Origin: Aneurinibacillus sp.
GTDB taxonomy: Bacteria > Bacillota > UBA5301 > DYFA01
Direction: 5' to 3'
Assembly (NCBI GenBank): GCA_020725425.1
Contig: DYFA01000045.1
Span: 70,924 to 134,923 of the forward strand
DNA length: 64,000 nt
In this document: piece by piece, positions 5,210 to 58,800 of the stretch
Numbering within the stretch: position 1 is the first letter of the stretch
Layout of the letters: each line of letters starts with the position of its first letter
Program-made: the position numbers and the translations under genes
Notes under the pieces: generated by a model
The model's input: only the letters and a program-made list of their open reading frames with translations
Database searches by the model: none
What the model was told of the DNA's origin: nothing

Positions 5210-5448
5210 ATAGACCCTCCTCCCCCAGGAATCAAAGCGGCCTGTTTCCCGGTGTCGAGAAACAGGCCCCGTGCCCGCTGGGTTGATTTCCTGTCTCTCC
5301 GGCAGCCCGGCTGTCGTAGCCTCCGTTTGGCTGTAGACCCGCAGCTTTGCGTCTCCCTCTCGCTGGCAGGATTAGCCAATGAAAGGTGGAACAACTATCT
5401 CACCAAAGCGCAAGGGGGTCGCCTTGTGTGAGCCGGGGAGGGAGAGCG

Positions 5449-38603: not shown

Positions 38604-39734
38604 CTAGATCAGAAGACGCTTGTATCGCTCGACCTCGGCCCGGACCTCTTGAGCCAGTCTCTCGTACTTGTCCGCCAGCCTGACCGTCCGGATCCGCTCC
38701 GCCCGGGGATCGGCCGGCACCAGGAACCCCTCCTCGATCCACCTCTTCGTCTTCTCCCGGACAGTCCGGTCCGCCAACCCGGTGAGGCGGCGCAGGTCCG
38801 TGGTAGTGGCGGTGCTGCTGCGGAGAGCCAGATGGGCAAAGACCGTCCGCTGGACGCCGTCCAGGTGACGGAGGAGGTCGGGCTCGACCGACACGAACTC
38901 CTGACTCTTCGCCTCCACCACTTTGGCCGCCTCCAGAAAGACCTCGCCCACGCCTTGCAGGAAGAAGTCCAGCCAAGGGGTGAGGTCGGCGTCGTGGCGC
39001 CCGAAGTAGTAGTTGTGATGCAAGCCCATCTGGAGATTGGCGTAATAAGCGGCCAGGTTCCGGTCGTAATAGGTTTCGAGTACGAACAGGCGCTTCAACC
39101 CGAGCCCGCCACGCCGCATGAGATAAGTGGCCAAAGCCCTGCCTGTCCGGCCGTTCCCGTCAAGATAGGGGTGGATCGTCAGGAACTGGTAGAGAAAGAT
39201 CCCGGCCTGGATGGGCACAGGCAGCTCGCTGGCCGCCGGATGGTTGATCCAGGCCACCAGATCCTCCATCAAGCGGGGGACGTCTTCCCACTCCGGGGGC
39301 AGGTATACGATGCGCCCCGTGGACTCGTCTCTTACGGCGTTCTGCTCTTTGCGGTACTCGCTTAGGCGCGGCCGCCGGCCGCCGGGGATGACCCTGATGA
39401 TTGCATGGACCCGCTTGATCAGTTCCTCCGTGACCGGCAGACCCCGCTCTTCGCACTCCTCCAGGTACTCCATCGCCTTATACAGGTTGGATACCTCTTG
39501 TTCGGCCGCCGACCTGGTGCGGGCATATAACGCGGTCCGCTTTTGGGCTTCACTCAGCCGGTTTCCTTCGAGTTTGGTCGAGAGCAACACAGTCTGGACG
39601 CGGGACTCCCGCTGGAGCTCCTTCAGGATGTTGGCCGGCAGCGGGAGGTGCTCCACCAGTGTATTGGCGCGCGCAATCTCCATCAGATTAGAGGCCATGC
39701 GAGGGGTGATCGAGAACCGCGGGGCAAACGGCAT
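38604..39734 (-). CDS. Class II Fic-family protein (AMP-transferase) with intrinsic inhibitory helix and C-terminal wHTH
   Basis: Fic motif 'HPYLDGNGRTGRAL'. Inhibitory motif 'STKLEGN' ([ST]xxxE[GN]) near the N-terminus. The likely start is the second Met (RBS GGAGG precedes it). Confidence 0.85.
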   Translation of the reverse strand: MPFAPRFSITPRMASNLMEIARANTLVEHLPLPANILKELQRESRVQTVLLSTKLEGNRLSEAQKRTALYARTRSAAEQEVSNLYKAMEYLEECEERGLPVTEELIKRVHAIIRVIPGGRRPRLSEYRKEQNAVRDESTGRIVYLPPEWEDVPRLMEDLVAWINHPAASELPVPIQAGIFLYQFLTIHPYLDGNGRTGRALATYLMRRGGLGLKRLFVLETYYDRNLAAYYANLQMGLHHNYYFGRHDADLTPWLDFFLQGVGEVFLEAAKVVEAKSQEFVSVEPDLLRHLDGVQRTVFAHLALRSSTATTTDLRRLTGLADRTVREKTKRWIEEGFLVPADPRAERIRTVRLADKYERLAQEVRAEVERYKRLLI

Positions 39735-39755
39735 AATAAAGCCTCCTCGGGCCAT

Positions 39756-40988: not shown

Positions 40989-41861
40989 CTAGCGGAATCC
41001 TTCAAGCAGCCGCAGCGCCAGGGCCGGGTCACCCATGGGGAAGAGGTGCACCCCCGGCACCCTGCCCCAGAGCTCGGCCAGGATCTCCCGGGCGAGACGG
41101 ACGCCTTCGTCCGGGGCCCCTTTCTCCATGCGCTCCAGGATGAACGGCGGGATCCGGATTCCCGGCACGTGCGTGTTCAGGTAAACCGCCGACTTGTAGC
41201 TCTTGAGCGGCAACACGCCGTAGATCACCCGAACTCCGAGATGGGCCGTCCGGCGCCGGAACTCAGCCGCCTGCTCCAGGTCGAAGACGGGCTGCGTCTG
41301 GGCGAAGACGATCCCCGCCTCCACCTTGGCCTCGAGGCGCGCCGCCTCGACCTCCAGGTCCGGGGCGTTGGGGCTGGCCGTCCCGCCGATCAGGAAGTCG
41401 GTCGGAGCGTCCAAGGGTTTGCCGTTGCTGTCCTGGCCGGCGTTGAGCGTGCGGGCCAGCCTGGCCAGACCCAGGGCGTCCACGTCGAACACCCCGGTGG
41501 CCTGGGGGTGGTCGCCCCGTTCCGGCCGGTCTCCCGTCAGGGCCAGGATGTTCTTAACCCCGAGCGCCGCCGCCCCGAGCAGCTCGGCTTGCAGCCCCAG
41601 GAGGTTGCGGTCCCGGCAGGTCAGGTGGAAGATGGCCTCCACCCCCAGGTCCTGCTGGAGCAGGTGGGCGCAGGCGATGGGGCTCATGCGCAGGTTGGCC
41701 ATGGGGCTGTCCGCCACGTTCACCGCGTCCACCAGCGCCGCCAGCACGCCGGCCTTCGCCAGCATCGGACGGGGGTCGGACCCCCGGGGCGGCTCCAGCT
41801 CCACCGTAACCACGAACTCTCCCCGGGCCAGCTTCTGCCGGAGATTCTTTTCCTCCTCCAC
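40989..41861 (-). CDS. metF: 5,10-methylenetetrahydrofolate reductase
   Basis: 'FVVTVELEPPRGSDP...' with an MTHFR TIM barrel. 290 aa. Confidence 0.85.
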   Translation of the reverse strand: MEEEKNLRQKLARGEFVVTVELEPPRGSDPRPMLAKAGVLAALVDAVNVADSPMANLRMSPIACAHLLQQDLGVEAIFHLTCRDRNLLGLQAELLGAAALGVKNILALTGDRPERGDHPQATGVFDVDALGLARLARTLNAGQDSNGKPLDAPTDFLIGGTASPNAPDLEVEAARLEAKVEAGIVFAQTQPVFDLEQAAEFRRRTAHLGVRVIYGVLPLKSYKSAVYLNTHVPGIRIPPFILERMEKGAPDEGVRLAREILAELWGRVPGVHLFPMGDPALALRLLEGFR

Positions 41862-41887: not shown

Positions 41888-44416
41888 CTACCCCCGCTCC
41901 CTACCGGCCGTCAGTTCCTGGGCCAGCCGGACCGCCGCCACGGCGTCCCGCCCGTAGCCGTCCGCCCCGATCTGCCGGGCGAACTCCTCGGTCACCACCG
42001 CCCCGCCCACCATGACCTTCGCCGGGAGGCCCGCCGCCTGCAGAGCCTCGATCACCCGGCCCATCCCGACCATGGTAGTGGTCATCAGAGCGGAGAGACC
42101 CACCAGCCCGGCCCGCTCCGCCCGGGCCGCCTCGACCACCCTCGCCGCCGGGACGTCCCGGCCCAGGTCGACCACTCGGAACCCGTGGTTCTCCAGCATG
42201 ACCGCCACGATGTTCTTCCCGATGTCGTGGATGTCGCCCTCCACGGTGGCCAGGACCACGGTTCCGCGGCCGGCCGGAGCGCCACCCCGGGCGAGGTGCG
42301 GTTTGAGCTCGGCGAAGGCCGCCCGGGCGGCGTCCGCCGAGAGCATCAACTGCGGTAGAAAGTATTCACCGGCCTCGTAGCGGCGTCCCACTTCCTCGAG
42401 AGCCGGCACCACCGCCCGATCTACGATCTCGAGAGGATCCGACCCGGCCAGGGCCTTGGCCACCAAGTTCGGCGTCTTTTCGGCTTCCCCTTCTACAATC
42501 GCCCGGTAGAGAGCGGCGACGCTGTCGCCCTCAGCCGCGGGAGGCGGTTCGGGCATCCGGGCGGCCGCCGGTGCAGGCAGAGAACCGGCAGTATCCGCCG
42601 CCTGCGGCCGCCGCTCCTCCTTGGGCTGAGTGGCCAGGTAGACCCGGGCGTGGCGGTCCCGGTTCACCAGGACCGCCCCCGCCTGCAGCGTCTCCCAGAC
42701 CCGGGCATCCAGGGGGTTGACGATGGCCGCGTCCAGCCCCGCCCCCAGGGCCATCGCCAGGAAGGTGGCGTTGAGCAGGGATCTTCCCGGCAGCCCGTGG
42801 GAGACGTTGCTGACCCCCAGGACCGTCCCCACCCCGAGCTCCTCCCGGATCAGCCGCACTGCCCGGAGCGTCTCGGCGACCTCGGCCTGCTGCGCCCCGG
42901 CCGCCAGGACCAGACAGTCGATCAGGAGCTCCTCCCGCCGCAACCCGGCCGCCTCCGCCGCCGCGACGATCCGGCGGGCGATTGCCAGCCGCTCTTCCGC
43001 CCGCGGAGGTATGCCTCGCTCATCCAGGGTCAACCCGAGGACGGCCGCCCCGTATCGCCGGGCGAGCGGCAGAACCTCCGCCAGGACCTCCTCCTTGCCG
43101 TTGACCGAGTTCAGCAGGGCTCGTCCGTGGAAGATCTCCAACCCGGCTGCCAGGGCCTGGGCGTTGGCCGAGTCGATGCTCAGCGGGACCGGCACAGCCG
43201 CCTCGACCGCCGCCACCGCCGCTCGCATCGCCGCGGCCTCGTCCACCCCGGGCACCCCGACGTTCAGGTCGAGCACCTTCGCCCCGGCGGCCACCTGCGC
43301 TTTGGCCTCGTCCCGGTAAACCCCGAATTCCCTCGCCCGCACCGCCTCGGCCAGCCTCTTCCGGGCGGTCGGGTTGAGCCGTTCGCCGATGACCACCGGC
43401 AGCTCCTCCGGCCCGATCGCCACCACTCCGCCCGGACCGGCGAGGAGGGTCCGCCGCGATCCTCCGGCCACCCGGGGGGCCCCACCCTTCCCCGCCGCCT
43501 CGACCGCCCGGCGGAGGGCCCGGATGTGGTCCGGCGTGGTGCCGCAGCAGCCGCCGACCAGCGTCGCCCCGGCCGCCAGAAGCTCCTCCCCGGCCCGCCC
43601 GAACTCCTCCGGCCCCTGGGGGTAGACAGCCCGTCCCGCCTCCAGGCGGGGCAGGCCGGCATTGGGCTGAACCGCCACCGGAACCCGCGCTACCGCCGCC
43701 ATCCGCCGGATAAGCGGGACCAGCTCCCGGGGCCCCAGCGAGCAGTTGGCCCCGAGGAAGATCGCCCCGAGCCCCTCCAACACCACGGCCACCGTCTCAG
43801 GATCGGCCCCCAAGAGAGTCCGCCCGTGAGCGTCAAAGGTGAAGGTGCAGGCCACCGGAATCCCCGCGTCCCGGGCCGCCAGAACTGCCGCCCGGGCCTC
43901 GCCCAGGTCGGAGAAGGTCTCCAGGAAGATGAAGTCCACCCCGCCGGCGGCCAGCGCCTCGATCTGCTCCCGGTAGACGTCGTAGGTTTCGGCAAAGGAA
44001 AGCGGCCCGAAGGGCTCGACGAACTCTCCGGTCGGCCCTACGTCCCCGGCGACCAGGGCGTTCCCGCCCGCCGCCGCCACCGCCTCCCGGGCGAGCCTGA
44101 CCCCGGCCTGGTTCAGCTCCGCCACCGCCCTGCCCAGCCCAAAGGCGGAGAGTTTTCGGCGGTTAGCACCGAAGGTGTTGGTGGTGACGACCCGAGCTCC
44201 GGCCTCCAGGTAGGCCTGATGGATCCTCCGGACGGCCTCCGGACGGGCGGTGTTCCAAGTCTCCGGGCACTCCCCGGGGCGTAACCCGGCCGCGATGAGC
44301 TGAGTTCCCATCGCCCCATCCAGCAGGACCGGCCCCCGGTCGAGGAACACCCCAAGCCGCGCCGGACCCGGTCGGGCCACTTCGTTTCGCCGTCCGTCGC
44401 CCATCTGCGTCACCAT
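41888..44416 (-). CDS. metH: Cobalamin-dependent methionine synthase, short form (Hcy-binding + pterin-binding + B12-binding; no AdoMet reactivation domain)
   Basis: 'LLDGAMGTQL', pterin-binding domain, and B12 motif 'DIHDIGKNIV'. The ORF ends after the B12 domain. The ORF N-extension is spurious. Confidence 0.85.
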   Translation of the reverse strand: MVTQMGDGRRNEVARPGPARLGVFLDRGPVLLDGAMGTQLIAAGLRPGECPETWNTARPEAVRRIHQAYLEAGARVVTTNTFGANRRKLSAFGLGRAVAELNQAGVRLAREAVAAAGGNALVAGDVGPTGEFVEPFGPLSFAETYDVYREQIEALAAGGVDFIFLETFSDLGEARAAVLAARDAGIPVACTFTFDAHGRTLLGADPETVAVVLEGLGAIFLGANCSLGPRELVPLIRRMAAVARVPVAVQPNAGLPRLEAGRAVYPQGPEEFGRAGEELLAAGATLVGGCCGTTPDHIRALRRAVEAAGKGGAPRVAGGSRRTLLAGPGGVVAIGPEELPVVIGERLNPTARKRLAEAVRAREFGVYRDEAKAQVAAGAKVLDLNVGVPGVDEAAAMRAAVAAVEAAVPVPLSIDSANAQALAAGLEIFHGRALLNSVNGKEEVLAEVLPLARRYGAAVLGLTLDERGIPPRAEERLAIARRIVAAAEAAGLRREELLIDCLVLAAGAQQAEVAETLRAVRLIREELGVGTVLGVSNVSHGLPGRSLLNATFLAMALGAGLDAAIVNPLDARVWETLQAGAVLVNRDRHARVYLATQPKEERRPQAADTAGSLPAPAAARMPEPPPAAEGDSVAALYRAIVEGEAEKTPNLVAKALAGSDPLEIVDRAVVPALEEVGRRYEAGEYFLPQLMLSADAARAAFAELKPHLARGGAPAGRGTVVLATVEGDIHDIGKNIVAVMLENHGFRVVDLGRDVPAARVVEAARAERAGLVGLSALMTTTMVGMGRVIEALQAAGLPAKVMVGGAVVTEEFARQIGADGYGRDAVAAVRLAQELTAGRERG

Positions 44417-44967
44417 CCCCTGCCAGGCAGGGCGCCGCCCCACCCGGTCGCCGAATCCCGCCTTGCCTCTGCCCCCGGCTTGACAGCTTTGCGCATGGAG
44501 ACCACCGGCACCCGGGCGCCGTCCGAGCGCACCACAACCCGCTCGTCGTAGGCCTCGTATCCCAGCGAGGCATACAGCCGGACGTTCTGCTGTATTTCCG
44601 CCCGGACGTTGCACCAGACAACGCTCTCCCCGTTCTGCCGGGCGTACTCCTCGAGCCAGCCAACGATTGCCCTGGCTATGCCCCTTCGCCGGAAACCCGG
44701 CCGCACCGCAAGGCGTTTGAAATAGAGGCCGTCCTTCGAACGGAGGAACCGGACGGACCCCACCGCCACGCCGTCCACCAGACAAAGCGCTGCTTGCTCC
44801 ACGCCCTCCCGCATGAGGCCCTCGACGTCCTCCAGGCTCTCGCTCAGCGCCCCCGATGGGGTAGGCAGGTTGCGGTACTCTGCGAAGGCGTCGAGCGTCA
44901 CTGAATGAACCAGCGGGGCCTCCTCCGGGGTCGCCAACCGGATCTCCACTTCACCCTGACTGTTCAT
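44410..44967 (-). CDS. GNAT-family N-acetyltransferase
   Basis: 'FKRLAVRPGFRRRGIARAIVGWLEEYARQNG' acetyl-CoA-binding motif A. Start 'MNSQGEV'. Confidence 0.75.
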   Translation of the reverse strand: MNSQGEVEIRLATPEEAPLVHSVTLDAFAEYRNLPTPSGALSESLEDVEGLMREGVEQAALCLVDGVAVGSVRFLRSKDGLYFKRLAVRPGFRRRGIARAIVGWLEEYARQNGESVVWCNVRAEIQQNVRLYASLGYEAYDERVVVRSDGARVPVVSMRKAVKPGAEARRDSATGWGGALPGRGW

Positions 44968-46835
44968 GTTCCCACCGCCTTGCCACGCCGCCGCCCGTTC
45001 CAGGCCTCGGTCGCATACTTGAGCCGCACCAGCTCCTCTGCCCGGGAGCACTCCCCCGGCGTGAGCTCGCCCGGGGCCAGGACCACTCCGAACACCTCCG
45101 CCACCCCCGCGGCCACCGCCTCGACCACCTCCGTGAAGGCGGGGACCCGGCCCAGCACTCCCTCGAGCGAGGCGACGCCGTCCACCAGCGCTCGCCGCAA
45201 TCGCTCCCGGGCCGAGCGGGAGGGAAGCGCCAGACAGCGCAGGAGCTGATCGGGATCGAAACGCAAGAGAATCGAGCCGTGCTGGAGGATAGCCCCGGAC
45301 CGCCGGACCTGGGCCGAGCCGACCAGCTTCCGCCCCTTCACCACCAGTTCGTAGAAGGAAGGGGAGTCGAAGCAGGCCGCCGAGCGCTCCCCGCCCCGAT
45401 GCTTCGCCGGCGCCATCTCGGCCGGTGCCCCCAGCCGCCGCAACCCGGCCGCCAGCCCTTCGCCGATCGCCCGGTAGGTCTCGCTCACCGAAGACCCGGA
45501 GAAGCGGGGGTGCCCCTCCGGAACGACCACGGCATAGGTGACCTCTTCGGCGTGGAGCACCGCCCGTCCTCCAGTCGGCCGCCGGACACAGTCGAACCCC
45601 TGGGCGGCGCAGCCCTCCAGGTCGATCTCCTGCTCCCGGTCCTGGAAGTAGCCGAGGGAGAGGGCCGGCGGGTTCCAGCCGTAAAACCGCAGCGTCGGTG
45701 GGGCCTCGCCCCGGCCGACCGTCTCCATCAGAGCCTCGTCCACGGCCATGTTCCAGGCACCGGAGGCGAAACCCGTATCAAGCAGTCGCCAGGTTTCCCC
45801 GACAGGGAGAGCCACTGGCGTGAGCGGCGGCCGAGCCGTCTCCGGGAGACCCGCCTCCCTCAGGGCCCGCTCCGTCTCCTCCTCGCCCAACGGCCGGGGG
45901 TAATTGTAGGTAATGCCTCCGGGGCGCTCGGTGTAGTATGGCCGGTTGCAGTCCGGGCACCCGGAGGTCCGGAACGCCTCCCCCCCGGCCAGCGCCTCGC
46001 GGAGGTCCGCCGGAGACAGGCCGAAGCCGACCAGCCGCCCCTCAGGGTCGAAGGCGAAGGGTCGTCCGTCCGGCGCGACGCGGCCGGTAGCCAAAAGCCA
46101 CCGGGCGATCTGGAGCCGCCGGTAGACTGCCAGGTCAGGCGGGGCCTGTTCGGCAAGGGCGGTCCCGGGGACCGGGGTGAAGGCGAAAAGGCCCACCGTC
46201 AACCCGAGCCGGTGGAGCAGGAGCAGCGCCTCCGCCGCCTCCTTCTCCGACTCGCCCAGCCCGACGATCAGGTGGGTGGAGATCCGCCCCGGGAAGGCCG
46301 CCGCTGCCTCGCCCAGGAGATCCAGCAGGCGGGTGAAGCTGCCGCCCTTGACCCGGCGGAAGACCTCCGGCGTGGCGGCGTCCAGGGGAATACCGACCCG
46401 CTCGACGCCAAGTCTCAGCCATTCCCCCACTTCGGCGGCGTTCTTTGGCCTCACGGAGAGGCTGAGCGGCGGGTGAAGGGTCCCTTCGAGGGCAGAGAGG
46501 AAGGAGGCGACCCGTTCCCGCCAGCAGGGAGCGCTCACCACCTGCAGGCATAACCGGCGGAAGGGCGAGCCCTGCAGCGCCGCCAGGATCTCCTCATCCG
46601 CAAAGGCCGGCCAGGTCACCCGGGAGAGCCGGTCCGCCCGGCCCCGCGCCGTCCGGGCCTGGGGACAGAAGGCGCAGTCGGCCAGGCACCGCCCCTCGAG
46701 CAGAAGATAGGCGGTGGTAGGCGGGTCGCTCTGCCGGACCCGGGCTAAGCCCAGGACCCCGGCGGTACCCAGCGAAAGGCGCACGGTCGTCCTCCTTGTC
46801 AGGGATTTCCGGATGCGCTGAGAAAGGCGCAGCAC
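44964..46835 (-). CDS. Fusion protein: radical-SAM domain (LipS-like) + lipoate-protein ligase/octanoyltransferase (LplA/LipM BPL_LplA_LipB) domain
   Basis: N-terminal 'CLADCAFC' (CxxxCxxC). C-terminal 'GETWRLLDTGF...RFYGWNPPALSLGYFQ...RRPTGGRAVLH...KLVGSAQVRRSGAILQHGSIL' carries the lipoyl-ligase catalytic Lys motif. Confidence 0.7.
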   Translation of the reverse strand: MLRLSQRIRKSLTRRTTVRLSLGTAGVLGLARVRQSDPPTTAYLLLEGRCLADCAFCPQARTARGRADRLSRVTWPAFADEEILAALQGSPFRRLCLQVVSAPCWRERVASFLSALEGTLHPPLSLSVRPKNAAEVGEWLRLGVERVGIPLDAATPEVFRRVKGGSFTRLLDLLGEAAAAFPGRISTHLIVGLGESEKEAAEALLLLHRLGLTVGLFAFTPVPGTALAEQAPPDLAVYRRLQIARWLLATGRVAPDGRPFAFDPEGRLVGFGLSPADLREALAGGEAFRTSGCPDCNRPYYTERPGGITYNYPRPLGEEETERALREAGLPETARPPLTPVALPVGETWRLLDTGFASGAWNMAVDEALMETVGRGEAPPTLRFYGWNPPALSLGYFQDREQEIDLEGCAAQGFDCVRRPTGGRAVLHAEEVTYAVVVPEGHPRFSGSSVSETYRAIGEGLAAGLRRLGAPAEMAPAKHRGGERSAACFDSPSFYELVVKGRKLVGSAQVRRSGAILQHGSILLRFDPDQLLRCLALPSRSARERLRRALVDGVASLEGVLGRVPAFTEVVEAVAAGVAEVFGVVLAPGELTPGECSRAEELVRLKYATEAWNGRRRGKAVGT

Positions 46836-47662
46836 TCGTCATAAGGGACCAGCGCCCGGCCCTGAGCCGCCGCGAGTCGGCGCGCCGCCGGCGCCGGCTG
46901 GACGATGGCGTCCACCCCCGCCTCCACCGCCGCTACATCGAGTGCCTCCCGGTACCGCCCCCCCGGGCGCATGCAGCCCAGGGTGAGCCGGGCGCCGGGC
47001 AGGCGTTTCCGGGCGGCGGAGAGGAAGGCTGCCACCTCCTCGACCGGCGGGGCGCTCCGCCCCGCGTAGCGGGTCCCGGGCGTCGGGATGAAGACGAGCA
47101 CCACCAGGGCGTCGACTCCTTCCGCCACTAACCGGTCCAGGGCCGCGCCTTCCGGGCCGAGCCCGCCGCCGCGCAACCCGAGGCAGAGGTGGGGCACTAC
47201 AGGGAGCCGGGCCCGCAACGCCCGCAGGGCGGCCACGAACCTTTCCGGGCCGGCCTCTAAGCCGTAGACCTCCCGCAGCGTATCAGCGTCCGCGACGAAG
47301 TCGAGCGAGGCGACGTCCGCCCAGCCGGCGAGCGCCTCGGCTTCCGCCTCCTCCACCAGGCCGGGATGGGCGTTCAACCGGAACCGGCGGCGCAACCGGC
47401 GCAGCCGGCCGGCCTCCCGGGCCAGCGGCACCACGCCCCGGCGGTCACATCCCCCGCTGACGAGCAGGCTCTTGATTCGCCGCCAGCTTCTCCCTTCCTC
47501 CTGACCGGCCTCAACCGGCTCCAGCCCGACGGTGCGCAGATCGGCCATCCCGGCCAGGTATCGCCGGCCGCAGTGGGCGCAGTTCAGGGCGCACTCCGTC
47601 CCGGTGACGCTCACCGCCCGGGTCGCCCGGGGCCAGACGCAGATCAGCGGCCGGGGGTCCAC
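46799..47662 (-). CDS. Second radical-SAM protein (LipS partner-like)
   Basis: '[10 protein letters not shown]' CxxxCxxC, a TIM-barrel-like alternation, and a C-terminal CC pair. Confidence 0.6.
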
Positions 47663-49101
47663 CGCAGGTCGGGCTGGCGGGCCGCCCGGGCCTCGTCGAG
47701 GCGGCGGACCGGCGTGTGGTGCGGAGCGTCCTTCACCAGCTCCGGTTCCTCTTCCGCCTCCCGGGCAATCTGAGCCATGGCCGCCGCGAAGGCATCCAGC
47801 GTCTGCTGACTCTCGGTCTCGGTCGGCTCGATCATCAGCGCCTCCTCGACGATCAGCGGGAAGTAGATCGTCGGGGCGTGGAAGCCGAGGTCCAGGAGGC
47901 GTTTCGCCATGTCCAGGGTATGGACGCCCCGGGCCTTCTGCCGGCTCCCTGAGAGCACGAACTCGTGCATGCAGGTCCGGTCGAAGGGCACCGCGAAGTG
48001 CGGCCGCAGCTTCACCCGCAGGTAGTTGGCGTTCAGCACGGCGTCCTCGCTCACCTGCTCGAGCCCCTCCGGCCCCACCGCCCGCAGGTAGGCGTAGGCC
48101 TTGAGCGCCACCAGGAAGTTGCCGTAGAACGCCTTGACCTTGCCGATGGACTGCGGCCGGTCGTAGGCCAGGCGGAACCCGTCCGGTCCCTTTTCCACCA
48201 CCGGCACCGGCAGGAACGGCACGAGCGCCTCCTTGACGCCGACCGGCCCCGAGCCCGGGCCGCCGCCGCCATGAGGCGTGGCGAAGGTCTTGTGGAGGTT
48301 CAGATGGACCACGTCGAAGCCCATGTCGCCGGGGCGGGCCTTACCCAGAATAGCGTTGAGGTTGGCCCCGTCGTAGTACAGGAGGGCGCCGGCAGCGTGC
48401 ACGGTCCGGCTGATCTCGACGATCTGCTCCTCGAAGAGCCCCAGCGTGTTAGGGTTGGTCAGCATCAGGGCCGCCGTGTCGGGGCCGACCGCCGCCCGGA
48501 GTCTCTCCAGGTCCACCATGCCCCGCTCATCGGAGGGCACGGAGACCACCTCGAACCCGGCGAGAGCGGCCGAGGCCGGGTTGGTCCCGTGGGACGAGTC
48601 CGGGACCAGGACCTTCTTCCGCTGCTCTCCCTCGCCCCGGGCCCGGTGATAAGCAGCGATGAGGAAGAGGCCGGTCAGCTCGCCGTGGGCCCCCGCCGCC
48701 GGCTGCATGGTCATTCTGGCCATCCCCGTGACCTCGCAGAGGTCCCGCTCCAGCTCCCAGAGGAGCGCCAGCGCCCCCTGGACGGTCGTCTCCGGCTGGT
48801 AGGGGTGCAGCCCGGCGAAGCCCGGCAGTTCCGCCACCGCCTCGTCGATCTTGGGGTTGTACTTCATCGTGCAGGAGCCGAGCGGGTAGAAACCGACGTC
48901 CACTCCGTAGTTCAGCCGGGAGAGGTTGGTGAAGTGGCGGACCACGTCCACCTCGCTCACCTCGGGCAGCATCGGCGCCTCCTTGCGCAGCGCCTTCGCC
49001 GGCAGAAGCCGCTCCACGGGCTTCTGCGGCACGTCCGCCGCGGGGAGAGAGTAGCCGCGCCGCCCGGGAGACGAGATCTCGTACAACAACGGCACGCTCA
49101 T
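47644..49101 (-). CDS. gcvPB: Glycine dehydrogenase (decarboxylating) subunit 2
   Basis: Start '[17 protein letters not shown]'. PLP-Lys region present. ATGA overlap with gcvPA. Confidence 0.9.
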
Positions 49102-50447
49102 GCCCGCTTCGCCTCCTCCGCCAGCGCCTCGACCAGCCGGTCGATCGCCGCCTTGCTCTTCGTCTCCGTGACACAGACCAGCAGGGCGTCGGTCAAGTCC
49201 GGGTAGAACCGCCCCAGCGGCAGTCCGGGCAGGATCCCCCTCGCCGCCAGCCGTTCGGCCAGCTCCTCCGCCGGCCCCGGCACCCGCACTACGAACTCGT
49301 GGAAGAACGGCCCCGGGAAGGCAAGTTTGAAGCCGGGCAGAGCGCTCAAGCGGTCCGCGGCATAGTGGGCCTTCTGTAGGCAAAGCTCAGCCAGTTCTTT
49401 TAGCCCCTGCGGCCCCAGGAGCGAGAGATGCACGGTGAAGGCGAGGGCGCAGAGCGCCTCGTTGGAGCAGATGTTGCTCGTGGCCTTCTCCCGCCGGATG
49501 TGCTGTTCCCTCGTCTGGAGGGTCAAGACGAACCCCCGCCGCCCGTCCCGGTCCACCGTGGCGCCGACGATCCGCCCCGGCATCCGCCGGACCAGGCTCT
49601 CCCGGGCGGCCATAAAGCCCACGTACGGCCCGCCGAACCCGAGAGGGTTGCCGAGCGGCTGTCCCTCACCCACGCAGAGGTCCGCCCCGTAGGCCCCCGG
49701 CGCTTCGAGCAGCCCGAGGCTCACCGGGTTAGCGACCACGATGAGGAGCGCCCCCTTGGCGTGGGCCGCCTGGGCCAACTCTTCCCCGGCCTCCACCAGC
49801 CCGAAGAAGTTGGGGTTCTGCACGATGACGGCCGCCGTCTGTTCCGAGACCTGCGCTGCCGCCGCCGCCGGGTCGAGCGCCCCCTCCGGCGCCGGCAGTT
49901 CCCGGACCGTCACCTCCCACTGCCGGGTGTAGGTCTTGAGAACCTCCCGGTATTCCGGGTGGACGTTCGCCCCGATCAGAACCTCCGTCCGCCGGGTGTG
50001 GGCGAGGGCCATCGCCGCCGCCTCGGCCACCGCCGTGGCCCCGTCATAGAGCGAGGCGTTCGCCACGTCCAGCCCGGTCAGAGCCGCCACGTAGCTTTGG
50101 AACTCGTAGATCGCCTGAAGGGTCCCCTGGCTGACCTCCGGCTGGTAAGGGGTGTAAGCGGTGTAAAACTCGGCCCGCCCGGTGAGCTGGCCGACCGCGG
50201 CCGGGACGTAGTGCTCGTAGGCCCCGGCGCCCAGGAAAGAAAGGAGCCCGTTAGTGGGCGTGTTCCGCCCGGCCAGCGCCTGGAGGTGGCCCGCCAGTTC
50301 CATCTCGGAGAGGGGTCCCGGCAAATCCAGCGGGCGGCGGAGCCGAACCGCCTCCGGGATCGGGGCGAAGAGTTCCTCGACCGACTTGACCCCGCAGGCC
50401 TTGAGCATCTCCGCCCGCTCCCGCTCGGTGTGCGGCAGGAAGTTCAT
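49098..50447 (-). CDS. gcvPA: Glycine dehydrogenase (decarboxylating) subunit 1
   Basis: '[20 protein letters not shown]...[16 protein letters not shown]'. Confidence 0.9.
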
Positions 50448-50839
50448 CGGCCGCCGCCTTCTTCCCCTCCGACGAAGGCCGCATAATCGTCGGCCGACAG
50501 CAGGTTATCCAGCTCGCCCGGGTCGGACAGCTCGATCACCGCGATCCAGCCGTCCCCGTAGGGATCCTGGTTGATGGTCTCCGGATGGTCGGAGAGGTTC
50601 TCGTTCACCTCGACCACCGTTCCGGAGACCGGGGCGTAAACCTCGGAGACCGCCTTGACCGACTCGACCACCGCGAACTCCCCGCCCTGGGTGGTCGTGT
50701 CCCCCACCGCCGGCAGCTCGACGAAGACGACGTCCCCCAGCTCCTTCTGGGCGTGGTCGGTGATCCCCACGATCGCCCGCTTCCCTGAGACCCTGACCCA
50801 CTCGTGTTCCCGGGTGTATTTCAGCTCCTTCGGATACAT
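50444..50839 (-). CDS. gcvH: Glycine cleavage system H protein (lipoyl carrier)
   Basis: 'MYPKELKYTREHEWV...ESVKAVSEVYAP' with the lipoyl-Lys in 'SVKA'. Confidence 0.9.
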   Translation of the reverse strand: MYPKELKYTREHEWVRVSGKRAIVGITDHAQKELGDVVFVELPAVGDTTTQGGEFAVVESVKAVSEVYAPVSGTVVEVNENLSDHPETINQDPYGDGWIAVIELSDPGELDNLLSADDYAAFVGGEEGGGR

Positions 50840-50948: not shown

Positions 50949-52094
50949 CTATGCGCCGGGTGCGGCCGGCTGCTTGGGCGGCTTGCAGGTGCGGGCGGGG
51001 ACGAACGGCGTCCGCACCACCTTGGCCGGCACCGCCTTCCCCCGGATCTCGACCCCGATCTCCTGGCCCTCCGCCGCCAGATCAGCCCGTAGATACCCCA
51101 GCCCGATGTTCCGGCCCAGGGTCGGAGAGAAGGACCCGCTCGTGACCTCCCCCGCCGCCGCCCCATCCGGCGCCTTGAGCCCGTAGCCGTGGCGGGCCAC
51201 GCCGCCCTCCACGACGAACCCGGCGAGCTTCCGCTTGACCCCCTCCGCCTGCTGTTTGAGCAGCGCCTCCCGGCCGATGAACTCGCCCTTCTCCAGCTTC
51301 ACCACCCAGTTCAGGCCGGCCTCGAGGGGCGTCGTTTCGTCCGTCAGGTCGTTGCCGTAGAGCGGGTAAGCCATCTCCAGCCGGAGCGTGTCCCGAGCCC
51401 CCAGCCCGACCGGAACCAGGCCCAGCGGCTCACCCACGGCCAGGAGTCTCCGCCAGAGCCTCGGCGCCTCCGCCGCGGCCACGTACAGTTCGAACCCGTC
51501 CTCCCCGGTGTAGCCGGTCCGGGCGATGATCGCCGGAACCCCGTCGGCCTTCCCCTCCACGAAGCGGTAGTAGTAGAGTTCCCCCAGCGACTGGTCCGCC
51601 ACCTGGGCCACGATGTCGGCCGCCTTTGGCCCCTGCACCGCGATCAGCGCCGTCTCCAGGGTGGCATCCCTGAGCTCCACGCCGGGGCCCGGCCCCTGGG
51701 CGGCTACCCAGGTCCAGTCCTTGGTCACGTTGGCCCCGTTCACCACCACCATGAACCCCCTGGTCCGCCGGTAGACGACGATGTCGTCCACCACCCCGCC
51801 GGACGGGTTGAGGAGCATGGAGTAGTGGGCCTGCCCGACCGCCAGCCTTCCTAGGTCGTTGGTCGTCAGCCGCTGCAGGAAGGCCTCGGCTCCCGGCCCC
51901 TCGACAAAGAACTCGCCCATGTGGGAGAGATCGAAGAGACCGGCCTTCTCCCGGGTGGCCACGTGCTCGGCGACGATGCCTGTATACTGGACCGGCATCT
52001 CCCAACCGCCGAAAGCGGTGAAGCGGGCTCCCAGGGCCTGGTGTTCGGCATGGAGCGGGGTCCGTTTGAGGGCTTCACGGGTCTGGTTCTCCAC
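50949..52094 (-). CDS. gcvT: Aminomethyltransferase (glycine cleavage T protein)
   Basis: GTG start with RBS GGAGGGAG. '[29 protein letters not shown]'. Confidence 0.9.
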
Positions 52095-52132
52095 AGCTGT
52101 CTCCCTCCGTTCGGTACTGTTTCCCCAGTCCC

Positions 52133-52175
52133 CCAAAAAGAAAAGACAGGGGAACGCGCCCGTTCCTCTGTCCTT
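52133..52175 (-). terminator. Intrinsic terminator forming the riboswitch expression platform
   Basis: RNA 'GGAACG-GGCG-CGUUCC' hairpin followed by 'CCUGUCUUUUCUUUUU', about 40 nt upstream of the gcvT RBS. Confidence 0.5.
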
Positions 52176-52360
52176 CTCGCCTGAGAGATGCCCTGGGCGA
52201 CTTTCCCTCCGCCCGGGTTGCTCCTTCGGCGGGCTTTGCGCCGCCTCTCCAGAGTGCCGTCCTCCCGGGCTTCCGCTTGCCTGAGAGTTTCAGCGAGGGT
52301 GGCCGCTCCTCGCCTTGCTCCTTCGGCGCCCGACTCTCCGGGTCTCTCCCCCGGGACTCC
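52147..52360 (-). ncRNA. Tandem glycine riboswitch (two aptamers)
   Basis: Minus-strand RNA aptamer 1: 'GGGGGAGAG...GCGCCGAAGGAGCAAGG...ACUCUCAGGCAAG'. Aptamer 2: 'CUCUGGAGAG...GCCGAAGGAGCAACC...UCUCUCAGGCGAGAAGGACAGAG'. Both match the glycine riboswitch consensus and sit upstream of gcvT. Confidence 0.85.
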
Positions 52361-53593: not shown

Positions 53594-55852
53594 TCAGCCG
53601 GAGACACCTTCAGGTGCCGACGTCTCTAGCCTGCTGTCCTGGTCCGCCTCAGATTCTTCGGTGCTGCCACCCTCGGATACTGTCGTTTCTGTGACATGGC
53701 GGTGTACCGATGCGAATTGGTGCGCCACCCGTTCGTCGATGTGCCCTTTCCGATAGTTCTCAGCGCGAGGAGACTCTAGTGCTGACCCGTAGACCCTGCT
53801 CAGCGCCTTAAGCACCTGCCCCGGGTCCACAACTAATCTCAAAGAATCGTACTGCATACGTTCAAAATCTCCTGGGGCCGGACCTGAGTCGCTGCCCCAA
53901 GCAGTGCCCAGGTAGCACTTAAGCAGTTCTACTGCATTCCGAGGGTTTTCTTCCATTAGCTTAACTAGGTAATCGTTGCTTTCCTGCCGGGACCCCCAAT
54001 GCGCCCATACGTAGAGTAGTGCAGGGGCTTCTTTTCGGAAGTCTTCGTGAAGAACATGTGTTTGGCTGTACTCGCGAATTCGATTTGCCGCAACCCTGCC
54101 AATCTCGTCTTCCTGGCTCTTGGGTAAGGTTGCCTCCTCGCCTTCTTCAGACGCGCGGAGCCATCTGTAGAACTCGACAGCCAGTGACAACGGTTCTATA
54201 CTCTTGATCAGAAGCTTAGCCACATCGAATCGTTGCTGGACATCAGGAATGTTCTTGAGCAACGTCGCCAGCAGGGCAGCTGCTCTTGAGAAGGGACTCA
54301 GTGAAAGAAACGTTTCGGTATTCGGAAACTCCGGGCCAACCTCTCCGATGGCTAGGGCCAAGTTAACCGACGTCTCTGGAGGCAGTACCTCGGCCCTTCT
54401 GATGAACTTGGTCAAAACCCTGTCGGGCCCTGCGTCCTTGATTGCCGCACGAAGCTCGGGGAGACAAGCGCTTACTCTCTCCCTCCTCTCAAGTCCAGCT
54501 AGTAGGGAGAGTATCGCGTTGTCAGAGACATCGCCGAGGGGAATTGCATACGAGAAGTAGCGCCGGAAGTAGTCCTGGGAGGCGACTCGTTGTTCCTCTG
54601 CCCAATGCTTGTCCCAGTCGGATCCGTATGCCGCGTCGCCATATAGCCCGCACCCGGATCTCGGGAACAACACACCAAGCAATTCTCTTGCAGCATCCTT
54701 GTCCTCAAGCGGAAGCTCGGCTAGAGCTTCGTCAATGAGTTGTTGTTTTCTCTTTCGTTGGGACTCATCGCGAGAGCTCTTCAGAACAGCATCAGGATTG
54801 TCACGAACCATCGAGTAGAGCTTTGGATAGAAGACCCTCATGCCTTCAACTAGCATCAGATCTACGGGATTGACCTCACCTTTGAGAATCGGGAGGGCGA
54901 ACAGCAGTGCGTTGCCGTATCGTTTCGCCATCCTTGGTGTCCGAAGTCGGGGCCCGAAGGCTGTGATAAAGCGGCTGCTGAACGAGTTGGCATCTTCCTT
55001 CTTGAGTGTAATACCTGCAAGAGAAAGTGCTTCGTTTGCTGCCATAAAACATATTTCTACGAGAGACGCTTCGTCAGCGGGAGGAAGATGCAGCGGGACC
55101 TGCACGATCTTATCAAGGAAATCGTGGCCCGCTGCCTCGTCCGAGCCATACCGCTCCGCCAACGCTTTGGCCACCATGTCATCGTCGAACGCCAAGACGT
55201 AGCTTGTGTATGCAAAATCCGCGGTCAACTTTACGAGCTTAAAGATTGCGTGAATTTCTGTCTTATCCAGACGATCAATGTCGTCCACCAGCACTACCAC
55301 GCGCTTCTTTGAGCTCGTTAGAATGGTTTCAATCTTCTTCTTTAGGGCTTCTGCATCTATTGAAGTGAGTTTCTCTCCGACCTTTTGTAGACTGCTAGCA
55401 TAGGGGTTGACAGGGACCAGTAGCGCTGCATACTGCATGAGCAGTCCAAAGATCTCTGTGGTAGAAGTAAGACTCCTATGTAGCGCCGATGCCAAGGTCC
55501 TGAAGTAGGCTATTATGAGTTGGGTCTCGTCCTCGCATTGCCAAGGATTGAACCAAACGCAGATAATGTTGGCATGATGTTCAAGTTCATGCTTGATAAA
55601 ATGGAGGACTGTCGATTTCCCCTCTCCCCACGCGCCGTATATCCCTACTACCAGACTGCTGGAATCCTCAGATGCAGCTATCGTGTCCGCTACTCTCTTG
55701 GCAAAAGGCCACCGTCGAAAGCGATCTTGACTTGGATCCGTTATCGGAGAGTCCGCAAAGTAAGCACCTTGCGCTTCCGTTGACCTATTCTTGCGGGGTT
55801 GGTGGCCAGCTCGGCCCCTCCTGCTCTTGAATGGCCACATTCGCCGCATCAC
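53594..55852 (-). CDS. KAP-family P-loop NTPase
   Basis: 'DRFRRWPFAKRVADTI', Walker A 'GAWGEGKST', 'FNPWQ', and Walker B 'VVLVDDIDRL'. 752 aa. GC is markedly lower than the flanks. Confidence 0.8.
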   Translation of the reverse strand: MMRRMWPFKSRRGRAGHQPRKNRSTEAQGAYFADSPITDPSQDRFRRWPFAKRVADTIAASEDSSSLVVGIYGAWGEGKSTVLHFIKHELEHHANIICVWFNPWQCEDETQLIIAYFRTLASALHRSLTSTTEIFGLLMQYAALLVPVNPYASSLQKVGEKLTSIDAEALKKKIETILTSSKKRVVVLVDDIDRLDKTEIHAIFKLVKLTADFAYTSYVLAFDDDMVAKALAERYGSDEAAGHDFLDKIVQVPLHLPPADEASLVEICFMAANEALSLAGITLKKEDANSFSSRFITAFGPRLRTPRMAKRYGNALLFALPILKGEVNPVDLMLVEGMRVFYPKLYSMVRDNPDAVLKSSRDESQRKRKQQLIDEALAELPLEDKDAARELLGVLFPRSGCGLYGDAAYGSDWDKHWAEEQRVASQDYFRRYFSYAIPLGDVSDNAILSLLAGLERRERVSACLPELRAAIKDAGPDRVLTKFIRRAEVLPPETSVNLALAIGEVGPEFPNTETFLSLSPFSRAAALLATLLKNIPDVQQRFDVAKLLIKSIEPLSLAVEFYRWLRASEEGEEATLPKSQEDEIGRVAANRIREYSQTHVLHEDFRKEAPALLYVWAHWGSRQESNDYLVKLMEENPRNAVELLKCYLGTAWGSDSGPAPGDFERMQYDSLRLVVDPGQVLKALSRVYGSALESPRAENYRKGHIDERVAHQFASVHRHVTETTVSEGGSTEESEADQDSRLETSAPEGVSG

Positions 55853-55892: not shown

Positions 55893-58800
55893 TCACCCGC
55901 ACTTCGAGTACCCGCAGCTGACGCAGACGACGCAGCCCGCCTCGTGGGTCAGCGTGCAGCCGCATTCAGGGCAGAGGTTCTTCTCGAGCGCGGCGTGGTA
56001 GCTGTCGCCGCTGGCCGCTACCTCCAGGGGCGCCCGGTGGGTCTCGCCGGTCGGCTCTTCGCAGCGGGGGTCGGCCCCGGGCGGCGGCTGCGGATCCGGC
56101 GCCAGCGGGATGGCGGTCGGCGCCTTCGGGACTCCGCCGCCGAAGGGGAGGCCGGGCTGGACGGCCCCGCCGGTCCGCTCGACGTACTTCTTGATCGCCT
56201 TGGCGATGGCGTCCGGGCAGGAGGTCACGTGAACCCCCGGGCGGCGCAGGCAGGCCGGGCAGCGGATGCCCCGCAACTGCTCGTAGATGGCGTCCACGGA
56301 GATCCCCGACCGCAGGGCGATCGAGATCAGGCGGCTGGTCGCTTCCGACTGGGAGGCGCATCCGCCCTCCCGGCCGGTGTTGGTGAAGACCTCGCAGACG
56401 CCGTACTCGTCGGCGTTGACGCTGACGTACAGGTTTCCGCAGCCGACCTGCACCTTCTCGGTGGTCCCGGCGGTCACCTGGGGCCGCGGGCGGGGCACGA
56501 TGGCCACGGGTGGGTGGACCGGACCCGAGCCGTCCACTTCCTTCGCCTTCGTCCCGGCGGTCAGCACCTGCTCCTCCCGGCTGCCGTCCCGGTAGACTGT
56601 CACCCCCTTACACCCCTTGGCGTACGCCAGGAGATACGCTTTGGCCACGTCCTCCCGGGTCGCCTCGTGGGGGAAGTTGATCGTCTTCGAGACGGCGTTG
56701 TCGGTGTACTTCTGGAACGCCGCTTGGATGGCGATGTGCCACTCCGGGGCGATCTGGTGCGCCGTGACGAAAAGCTGCCGGTAGCGCTCGGGCACCTCCT
56801 CGATGTCCTCGAGCGACCCCTTCTCGGCGATCCTCTCCATGAGCTGCGGGGTGTAGAACCCTTCCCGGCGGGCGATCTCCTCGAAGAGCGGGTTCACCTC
56901 GACCAGCCTCTGGTTGTCCAGGACGTTCCGGACGAAGCAGACCGCAAAGAGCGGCTCGATCCCCGAGGAGCAGCCGGCGATGATGCTGATCGTCCCCGTC
57001 GGGGCGATGGTGGTGGTGGTGGCGTTGCGGACTGGCCTGGCTCCGGGCTTGTCCAGGATACTCCCCTTGAAGTTGGGGAAGGGTCCCCGCTCTTCGGCCA
57101 AGTCCGCTGAGGCCTCCCAGGCCGTCTTCTGGATGAAGGACATGACCTCCTCGGCGATCTCGGCCGCCCGGTCGCTGTCGTAACGGACGCCGAGCTTGAT
57201 GAGCAGATCGGCGAAACCCATCACTCCGAGCCCGATCTTCCGGTTCGCCTTGACCATCTCGTCAATGATGGGCAGAGGGTACCGGCTGGCGTCGATCACG
57301 TCGTCCAGGAACCGCACCGCCAGCCTGACCACCTCGGCCAGTTTCTCGTAGTCGATCTCCGCCCGGTCCCCGACCTCCTCCACCATCTTGGCCAGGTTGA
57401 TCGAGCCGAGGTTACAGGCCTCGTAGGGCAGAAGGGGCTGCTCGCCGCAGTTGGAGACGACGATCCCGTTGGCGATGAAGGAGTGGGTCATTGGCTCGGT
57501 CAGGTCGAAGACCGGCTTCTCCCCGACGGGCACGACCGAGGCTACCCTGTCGGTGAAGCTGCGGGCGTAGAAGCCGCGCTTACGGCCACGGAGCTCGGCC
57601 ACCCGCTCAGCATACTTGTTGCCGAGGAACCCGATCTCGTCCAGGAACAGCTCTAGATCCTCCCGGCTCACCTGCAACTCGAAGAGGACCCCGTCACTCT
57701 CGTACCGCCGCTCCTCTCCGGCCACAGTCAGGTACCGGAAGGCCTGACGCGGGGTCCGGGATCGGTCATAGATCCGGCTCTTGACGCCTAGCGCCAGGAG
57801 GAGCCGCTGCACGTCCTGGAGCAGCAGGAGGGACTTGGCCGTCAGGCGGGCGTAGGCCGTCTGGTTCTTCCCGAGCGCCAGCGTCCCGTCGGCGGTGAAC
57901 AGGCCGCGCAAGAATCCGACCACCGCCTCTCGGGAAGCCGTGAAGAGGGCCTCCGGAACCCGCTTCTCCCGAGCCTCCCCAGGCACCACCCCGAGCTTCC
58001 GGAGGAACTCCACGAAGTAGCGGCTGTGGTAGGATAGGTGAAAGACCCCGTTCGCCCGCCGGATAGGCTTGACCTCGGTCCCGTACCACCGGTTGAGGAC
58101 CGGTGCCAGGCGCTCCATCGCCTCCCGGTCGTCGGCGGCGAAGGTGAACCCGACGCGGCAGTTCCGCTCGCCGTCCACGAGCCAGCCGTCGCCGACCAGC
58201 CATCCCAGCGCCTGCCCCAAGTCCTCGCTCCATTCGTGGGGGAAGGCATGGCGGTAGGTCCGCCCGTTCCGCCCCTGGACCTCCGCCTCCGGGACGAAGG
58301 GCAGGGCCGCCTTCTCCGGAAAACCGCTCTCGCCGGACTGGAGCAAGACGGAGTGGAAGCCCGGCTTAAGCTCACCCGCCCGGACCCAGCCCCGGGTTGT
58401 CATGATCTTGTGGTCCGGAGTGACTTCCAGGCTGTATCCGGCTTCGGTCGTCACCCGGACGACTGGCTTGACACCGCTGGCGAAGGCCCTTAGGACCGGA
58501 TGGAGCGTCACCCCGCCGGTGACCGCGCTGCTCCCGGCTGTACCGTTCTTGAGGCAGGTCAACGGAAGCACTCGGTCGTCCGTCGCCACGGCGACTTCTC
58601 TCCCGGCAGCTTCACGTACTAGCCGTTCCATGCGTATCAGCCCGTCGGCGGTGGAGACCAGAGCATCCCCGACTACGCACGGGTTGGTGCTCTCGATCTC
58701 CCCCACGGCCGGTGTCGGGTTGTCCCGGTTGATCCGGTCGAGGAAGATGATGCCCGGTTCCCCGTTCTTCCAGGCCCCCTCCACGATGAGGTCGAAGACC

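Follow-up and report, generated by a model that had tools for sequence, protein, structure and literature searches.

How does the lipoyl carrier of a glycine-cleavage system obtain its cofactor at a locus that encodes two radical S-adenosylmethionine (SAM) proteins, one of them joined to an acyl-attachment enzyme, and no canonical lipoyl synthase? The question is raised by a 64,000-nucleotide stretch of DNA from Aneurinibacillus sp. (Bacillota; contig DYFA01000045.1 of assembly GCA_020725425.1; hereafter the window), in which the minus strand carries the genes gcvT-gcvH-gcvPA-gcvPB-lipS1-lipS2::lipM-GNAT-metH-metF neighbouring genes overlapping or standing a few bases apart. We consider it likely that this locus encodes a self-contained de novo route to the lipoylated H protein (lipoyl-GcvH) inside a glycine-riboswitch-controlled glycine-cleavage and one-carbon operon, in which a LipM-type octanoyltransferase domain fused to LipS2 would load the carrier and LipS2 and LipS1 would insert the two sulfurs.

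The original prediction, drawn from the DNA letters of the window, held that two adjacent and different radical SAM proteins with the motifs CLADCAFC and CALNCAHC form a LipS1/LipS2 pair, that one of them is fused in frame to a complete LplA/LipM-type domain, and that the pair lies directly after gcvH and gcvPB in a window without canonical LipA. These observations stand. Open reading frames (ORFs), motifs and matches to Pfam Radical_SAM, both in the lipS1 product and in the N-terminal half of the fusion protein, mark the two as the only credible radical SAM proteins in the window, and the order gcvT, gcvH, gcvPA, gcvPB, lipS1, lipS2-fusion was confirmed. No ORF of the window combines the Cx4Cx5C and RSSY motifs of LipA, and the LipA model TIGR00510 matches neither protein. 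The same motif combination was absent from 86 related loci; nor was lipA or lipB found in the window or in the flanks of up to 10 kb scanned in relatives, which says little of whole genomes.

LipS1 and LipS2 were found in Thermococcus kodakarensis (TK2109/TK2248; Jin et al. 2020) and characterised by Neti et al. 2022 (PMC9585515), where mutagenesis mapped the ligands of the auxiliary [4Fe-4S] clusters to C230, C276, C277 and H159 of LipS1 and to C85, C276, C279 and H178 of LipS2. LipS2 acts only on octanoyl-lysine, at C8, and LipS1 only on 8-mercaptooctanoyl-lysine, at C6 (PMC9585515). In the window, lipS1 (46799..47662, minus strand; 287 residues; MDI6871512.1) shares its first 19 nucleotides with the end of gcvPB, and its product, deposited at NCBI as 'radical SAM protein', scores 256.7 bits against the NCBIfam LipS1 equivalog NF053742 (cutoff 230; E=2.7e-76; profile positions 4-268 of 268). 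CALNCAHC occupies residues 24-31 and supplies the Cx3Cx2C cysteines C24/C28/C31, and the auxiliary-cluster ligands C230, C277, C278 and H158, which correspond to T. kodakarensis C230, C276, C277 and H159, show 98-100% conservation across 51 homologues of LipS1. By all of these family characters the 287-residue protein is, as judged from its sequence, a LipS1.

The downstream ORF (44964..46835, minus strand) encodes 623 residues, whose numbering we follow here; its likely real start is a GTG at 46784, 6 nucleotides past an AAGGAGG, giving the 606 residues that NCBI calls for MDI6871511.1 ('hypothetical protein QME79_09190' of a Bacillota metagenome-assembled genome, MAG). Residues 18-313 (45897..46784, minus strand) match the LipS2 equivalog NF053743 at 340.1 bits (cutoff 270; E=1.1e-101) over the whole profile (1-292 of 292). 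The Cx3Cx2C cysteines C50/C54/C57 lie in CLADCAFC (residues 50-57), and the auxiliary-cluster ligands C96, H188, C293 and C296, counterparts of T. kodakarensis C85, H178, C276 and C279, are invariant in 38 fused homologues, so that on the same family characters this region is assigned to LipS2. The comparison by hidden Markov model thus upholds the predicted LipS1/LipS2 identity, with every cluster ligand of the T. kodakarensis enzymes kept. The window's proteins exceed the cutoffs of both equivalogs made for these families and, like that pair, carry Cx3Cx2C together with all mapped auxiliary ligands and would be expected to follow the C8-then-C6 chemistry. An AlphaFold2 model of the fusion protein shows two well-folded domains with a disordered linker between them (residues 314-346; 45798..45896, minus strand), a Pro/Glu/Ala-rich stretch of roughly 30 residues that varies in length and is poorly conserved in the alignment of homologues, with a predicted local distance difference test (pLDDT) score below 50 at residues 338-344. 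The LipS2 domain is modelled with a HydE/BioB-like fold, and its Foldseek matches are HydE, BioB and PylB; a sequence search of the PDB with the LipS2 half gave no match at E<=0.01. Since the PDB holds no LipS structure, HydE and BioB are the nearest solved folds.

What the fused C-terminal domain does is the more delicate part of the question. Residues 347-623 and the stop codon (44964..45797, minus strand) contain a complete LplA/LipM-type catalytic domain, matching PF21948 (LplA-B_cat; 1.7e-39, residues 360-577) and PF03099 (BPL_LplA_LipB; 5.7e-17). Over 97% of its length it shares ~50% identity with stand-alone proteins of 270-280 residues that include UniRef entries named 'Octanoyltransferase LipM' from Tumebacillus and Lihuaxuella, an identity that we used as a surrogate for a score against HAMAP MF_02118, the LipM model on which Tanabe et al. 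2023 relied. Cys488 and Lys503 are invariant in 38 of 38 fused proteins, the cysteine lying 15 residues before the family-wide lysine, and an alignment shows the motif ACFDxPSxYEL...GRK to be common to the fused proteins and the UniRef-named LipM proteins. LipM uses an active-site cysteine, lacks ligase activity and octanoylates GcvH (PMC7253636). From these features the fused domain is probably a LipM-type octanoyltransferase and not a salvage ligase.

The foremost alternative, which we regard as unlikely, is that the domain is the catalytic subunit of an ATP-dependent lipoate/octanoate:protein ligase of the LplA-N type, possibly with LplB encoded elsewhere, and that it attaches free octanoate or lipoate to GcvH, to which LipS2 and LipS1 would then add sulfur. 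Such a protein would form a salvage-plus-synthesis machine resembling the LplAB-LipS1/S2 systems of archaea and sulfur oxidizers, and the experimentally studied LipS1/S2 systems do work with ligases (PMC10332631). In the PDB, the domain is matched best, on sequence and on fold alike, by the catalytic subunit of Thermoplasma acidophilum LplA (template-modelling score 0.88 in Foldseek, for an AlphaFold2 model of mean pLDDT 88), and in Thorarchaeota the gene in the same slot after lipS2 is itself a ligase subunit, followed by lplB. Yet the fusion protein ends ~45 residues past the catalytic-domain match, and a Pfam scan found no LplB accessory domain (PF10437) in it; the ligase models are missed by a wide distance (TIGR00545 54.1 bits against a cutoff of 280, the LplA large-subunit model 97.9 against 480, LplAB 91.2 against 550), and the closest named relatives are the LipM octanoyltransferases.

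The 86 related loci bear on the same choice. The LplA-fold gene behind lipS2 lacks the Cys loop in Thorarchaeota and in a few further lineages, where the next ORF carries an LplB domain (PF10437, 1.4e-10); from ORFs of this kind we built an lplB profile. It matched 13 loci, 12 of them among the 16 scored as Cys-less and the 13th not in the alignment; the Cys488 loop is absent from the neighbours scored with lplB, and the profile found lplB beside none of the 39 Cys-containing LplA-fold genes (0/39). Neither the window nor any gcv-linked locus of Bacillota yielded an lplB-like ORF with it. This split suggests that two classes of enzyme, bipartite ligases and LipM-type transferases, fill the same operon position, and by its Cys loop the window's fused domain is assigned to the transferase class. 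Taken with the missing LplB domain, the failure against the LplA models, the resemblance to LipM and the cysteine, the lplB pattern therefore makes octanoyl-acyl carrier protein (octanoyl-ACP) from de novo synthesis, and not free octanoate, the most likely input of the domain. The original prediction had read the fusion as a salvage ligase coupled to sulfur insertion, and its salvage component is what the evidence speaks against: the LplB domain is absent, the LplA score is 54 bits against 280, the relatives are LipM-like with a transferase-type cysteine, and no lplB lies beside Cys-type genes.

Several points weigh against the transferase assignment and the wider route built on it. The nearest solved structure, that of T. 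acidophilum LplA at 28-30% identity, comes from a genuine ligase, of which it is the catalytic subunit, and the group of fused LipS2::LipM proteins is known solely from sequences and models. The LipM alignment comprised the fused and the UniRef-named LipM proteins. In B. subtilis LipM the cysteine C150 reportedly lies 15 residues before K165; that Cys488 is the equivalent of this C150 is our assumption. An lplB, lipA, lipB or second ligase could also lie elsewhere in the genome, beyond the 64 kb seen, and reviews warn that functions within PF03099 are not reliably assignable from sequence alone (PMC7253636).

An improbable second alternative makes the domain a LipL-like amidotransferase, moving an octanoyl or lipoyl group from GcvH onto E2 subunits of 2-oxoacid dehydrogenases after another enzyme, encoded elsewhere, has loaded GcvH. 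A relay enzyme of this kind would fit a position beside gcvH; LipL also partners GcvH, and it too works through a Cys acyl-enzyme intermediate (C150 being essential; 10.1101/419234). The NCBIfam LipL equivalogs NF047857 and NF053589, however, have cutoffs of 450 and 400, of which the window's protein reaches 19.9 and 18.3 bits; BH3822 (2p5i) is matched weakly (E=4.8e-4), and the 50% identity over the full length points to proteins named LipM. Moreover, the operon holds no E2 gene, and no other octanoyl-loading enzyme was seen in any of the conserved loci.

That the radical SAM pair belongs instead to another family (BioB, HydE or an anaerobic maturase) and that the fusion is an artefact of annotation or assembly, as might be supposed from the 'biotin synthase' labels that JGI gives to many relatives, from the HydE, BioB and PylB matches of the N-terminal domain and from NCBI names as bare as 'hypothetical protein' and 'radical SAM protein', is scarcely credible and effectively refuted: BioB TIGR00433 reaches 27 bits against a cutoff of 225 while both LipS equivalogs pass, the LipS-specific auxiliary ligands are conserved, and the fusion recurs in ~40 clusters from independent assemblies.

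The reality of the fusion follows from that recurrence. Assemblies made independently (JGI, ENA, NCBI and Logan) yield ~40 clusters, formed at 90% identity, in which LipS2::LipM is a single ORF; these homologues are 44-85% identical to the window's protein, and we therefore do not regard it as the product of misassembly or a frameshift. It is nevertheless rare. Among the best 150 matches in 1.84 billion representatives at 50% identity, three were full-length fused proteins and the remainder stand-alone LipS2 or LipM, and in a scan of one genome per GTDB species, with genes labelled by phmmer, true fusions were limited to the lineage of the window, one MAG of Symbiobacterium thermophilum and a small number of others. 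The order lipS1-lipS2-lipM is widespread, in Desulfosporosinus paludis, Pelosinus, Thermincola, Peptoclostridium litorale and Frackibacter as well as in many Bacillota and Chloroflexota MAGs; in most such loci lipS2 and lipM are separate, often one stop and a few codons apart. The full order gcvT-H-PA-PB-lipS1-lipS2(::)lipM is kept in dozens of Bacillota. A relative with a 76%-identical LipM, seen in two samples, has split genes with an AAGGAG, then TGA, 4 nucleotides and ATG, and its junction falls at the window's interdomain linker. Because so close a relative keeps separate genes, the fusion is evolutionarily labile, and a fusion that is real, rare and labile argues that the fused and split forms share the same job.

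The separate genes are themselves closely spaced. In 30 of 50 separate-gene loci lipS2 and the next LplA-fold gene lie in the same frame with one stop between them, an excess that may stem from the ranking of loci by tblastn score, which probably favours in-frame pairs. All of TAA, TAG and TGA are used, with the next start 0-15 codons later (loci L008-L045, e.g. L010 at 10960/10964 and L024 at 1489/1493); selenocysteine insertion or stop-codon readthrough at the junction was dropped as an explanation, given the use of all three stops and the start that lipM has of its own 0-15 codons on. Such single-stop, in-frame spacing would make fusion and fission one-mutation events. Other joinings occur in this pathway. 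Four metagenomic polypeptides of 607-683 residues (P0277, P0299, P0379 and P0092) are LipS1::LipS2 fusions that each pass both equivalogs; they represent the same pathway, but with the two synthase halves joined and not a transferase with LipS2. Separately, in two proteins from metagenomic or MAG Bacillota (P0070 and P0098) a domain resembling LipM, with 52-55% identity to that of the window, is putatively fused N-terminally to a prephenate dehydratase with an ACT domain.

Returning to the octanoyltransferase reading, the locus suggests a route of four steps. The LipM-type domain would charge its Cys488 with an octanoyl group as a thioester, octanoyl-ACP being the most likely source, and with the help of Lys503 would pass the group on to Lys62 of GcvH, whose gene lies three genes upstream. 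The product of gcvH (50444..50839, minus strand; 131 residues; orthologues with PF01597) contains the motif VESVK62AVSEVYAP, with the canonical VESVKA lipoylation site, and Lys62 is the residue that we take to be the site of modification (lipoyl-lysine). The LipS2 domain, with its radical SAM and auxiliary [4Fe-4S] clusters, would then put a sulfur on C8 of the octanoyl-lysine, and the separate LipS1 a second sulfur on C6, to give lipoyl-GcvH. The donor and the GcvH target are predictions, the order of the steps would be that of the Thermococcus enzymes, and the fusion may carry a kinetic benefit: with LipM joined to the first-acting half of the synthase, octanoyl-GcvH would be made beside LipS2, which fits a hand-off. 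The joining of the transferase to LipS2 thus offers independent support for the published C8-then-C6 order and suggests an interaction between LipM and LipS2. A stricter version, in which the link between LipM and LipS2 is an obligate hand-off complex and GcvH stays bound through octanoylation and C8 thiolation in a channelled reaction, is doubtful; if true, the tight spacing of the lipS2 stop and the lipM start would reflect the same physical complex in organisms with unfused genes. An acyl donor different from octanoyl-ACP, for example octanoyl-coenzyme A, might conceivably be used by the LipM domain or by the co-translated GNAT protein.

How new is such a system? The original prediction implied novelty in the bacterial setting, a claim that earlier publications overtake (PMC9585515, PMC10332631): papers of 2020-2023 describe LipS1/S2 and report that they exist in bacteria, are linked to gcvH and pair with LipM, and the fusion is a rare layout of a known pathway. 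Genome-neighbourhood analysis had already placed bacterial LipS1/S2 in clusters with the H protein and a gene of the biotin/lipoate A/B ligase family (PMC9585515). Compared with T. kodakarensis, the window's system differs in being bacterial, in the fusion of LipS2 to the acyl-attachment enzyme and in its position inside a gcvTHP operon, and the partner of the archaeal pair is a bipartite LplAB ligase, whereas that of the window appears to be a LipM-type transferase.

A bacterial pathway of this type, the sLpl(AB)-LipS1/S2 pathway of sulfur oxidizers, was demonstrated by Tanabe et al. 2023 (PMC10332631). Bacteria with lipS1/S2 and lipM but without a ligase make up ~0.3% of Firmicutes species (S4 Table; PMC10332631), and sulfur insertion into transferase-octanoylated proteins was inferred for them (PMC10332631). 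As a bacterial LipS1/S2 system with LipM, the window's locus resembles their category 'LipS1/S2 + LipM, no Lpl' (PMC10332631). The system that they tested has a ligase with an LplB domain, the target LbpA of the sHdr system and often LipT (PMC10332631), unlike the window, in which the target would be GcvH, lipT is not nearby, and a single polypeptide contains both LipS2 and LipM. In the main texts, the available supplement parts and the full-text searches, we found no description of a LipS2::LipM polypeptide, and the available parts of the supplementary tables of Tanabe et al. contained neither a 'LipS2-LipM' label nor the window's lineage.

The transferase side has its closest parallel in the LipM-LipA(-LipL) relay of B. 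subtilis, in which a Cys-type LipM octanoyltransferase acts on GcvH, the first protein lipoylated (PMC7253636). There, a single LipA inserts both sulfurs, C6 then C8, whereas in the window LipS2 would act at C8 and LipS1 then at C6. Unlike that relay (Christensen & Cronan 2010; Christensen et al. 2011), no LipL was seen in the window. The joining of an acyl-attachment enzyme and a sulfur-insertion enzyme in one polypeptide also recalls the NCBIfam family NF053790 'LplA_LipA_fuse', although that combines an LplA ligase with canonical LipA, and the window's protein scores 20 bits against its cutoff of 800. From the name of its model we presume this family to be a bifunctional lipoate-protein ligase/lipoyl synthase. 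The picture of lipoate biosynthesis built between 2020 and 2023 is unchanged. The fusion would be a handy single polypeptide for work on the structure and kinetics of LipS2 with its protein substrate, and right names for the window's two proteins, entered as 'hypothetical protein' and 'radical SAM protein', and for the many relatives labelled 'biotin synthase' would better the metabolic reconstruction of anaerobic Bacillota.

The regulatory setting of the route is read from the 5′ end of the operon, where all features lie on the minus strand. A glycine riboswitch aptamer at 52258..52361 matches Rfam RF00504 over the full model (1-94) at 51.1 bits (gathering score 32; E=1.4e-07), and it is the one aptamer to reach the gathering score of this family, upstream of gcvT. 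Between the aptamer and gcvT lies a terminator-like hairpin with a T-run (52141..52166; GGAACGGGCGCGTTCC then CCTGTCTTTT), which from its position is probably the expression platform of the riboswitch. The aminomethyltransferase gene gcvT (50949..52136), whose true start may lie a few codons downstream of the ORF start given, has orthologues with PF01571/PF08669 and phmmer scores of 300-700 bits across loci. After gcvH come gcvPA (49098..50447; glycine dehydrogenase subunit 1, 449 residues; orthologues with PF02347) and gcvPB (47644..49101; subunit 2, 485 residues; orthologues with PF02347 and PF21478). No internal terminator stands out above chance expectation within the gcvT-to-metF string. 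With the lipoylation genes in such a string, the operon would carry the full maturation route for its own cofactor under the glycine riboswitch, so that apo-GcvH and the three lipoylating activities would be made together.

Downstream of the fusion gene, and on the same strand, the start of a GNAT-family acetyltransferase gene (44410..44967; 185 residues; PF00583 8.7e-13) overlaps the lipS2::lipM stop in an ATGA. The GNAT gene is patchily conserved, being found in loci L001, L087 (5343-5876) and L088 and in neither the 75%- nor the 68%-identical relative (L002 and L090). In locus L089 (615-2969) the protein P0004 is a 784-residue LipS2::LipM::GNAT fusion whose GNAT part is 60% identical to the window's, and the GNAT of P0177 is unrelated to it. 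A role for GNAT as a pathway component was set aside, since the gene is missing from the 75%- and 68%-identical relatives despite its translational coupling here, and we treat it as a lineage-specific passenger. Next come a metH-like gene for B12-dependent methionine synthase (41888..44404; 838 residues; an identical gene in L001 has PF02574, PF00809, PF02607 and PF02310) and metF for methylenetetrahydrofolate reductase (40989..41861; 290 residues; PF02219 in the identical gene of L001), the final gene of the string. This tight string behind the glycine riboswitch thus holds the genes for lipoylation and, apparently, metH and metF as well. The 64-kb window contains no homologue of lpdA, the gene for the L-protein, which in more distant relatives often sits 3′ of the gcvT-to-lipM block.

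Other features of the window lie apart from the operon. A Fic/DOC-family protein is encoded at 38604-39755 (minus strand; PF02661, 3.3e-18), downstream of genes for an MscS-like channel and a DUF951 protein; the identical contig L001 has this gene as well, and L002 and L090 do not have it at that position. At 5298-5387 the minus strand carries an aptamer of the c-di-GMP-I riboswitch class (RF01051; 55.5 bits, E=4e-08). Between 8000 and 14000, G+C content rises to 0.74-0.75, compared with ~0.65-0.70 elsewhere, and long ORFs overlap on both strands. At 53594-55852 (minus strand) is an island of low G+C content (~0.53 against ~0.68 around it) with a 752-residue KAP-family P-loop NTPase (PF07693, 7e-49), set between a ribonucleotide reductase gene and an alpha/beta hydrolase gene; it is not at the same place in L002 and was probably acquired horizontally. 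The adjacent ribonucleotide reductase gene (55893-59495, minus strand) encodes a 1200-residue large subunit that is split by an intein containing a LAGLIDADG homing-endonuclease domain and has a TSCPD domain at its C terminus, and this intein-bearing architecture recurs in the 75%-identical relative L002.

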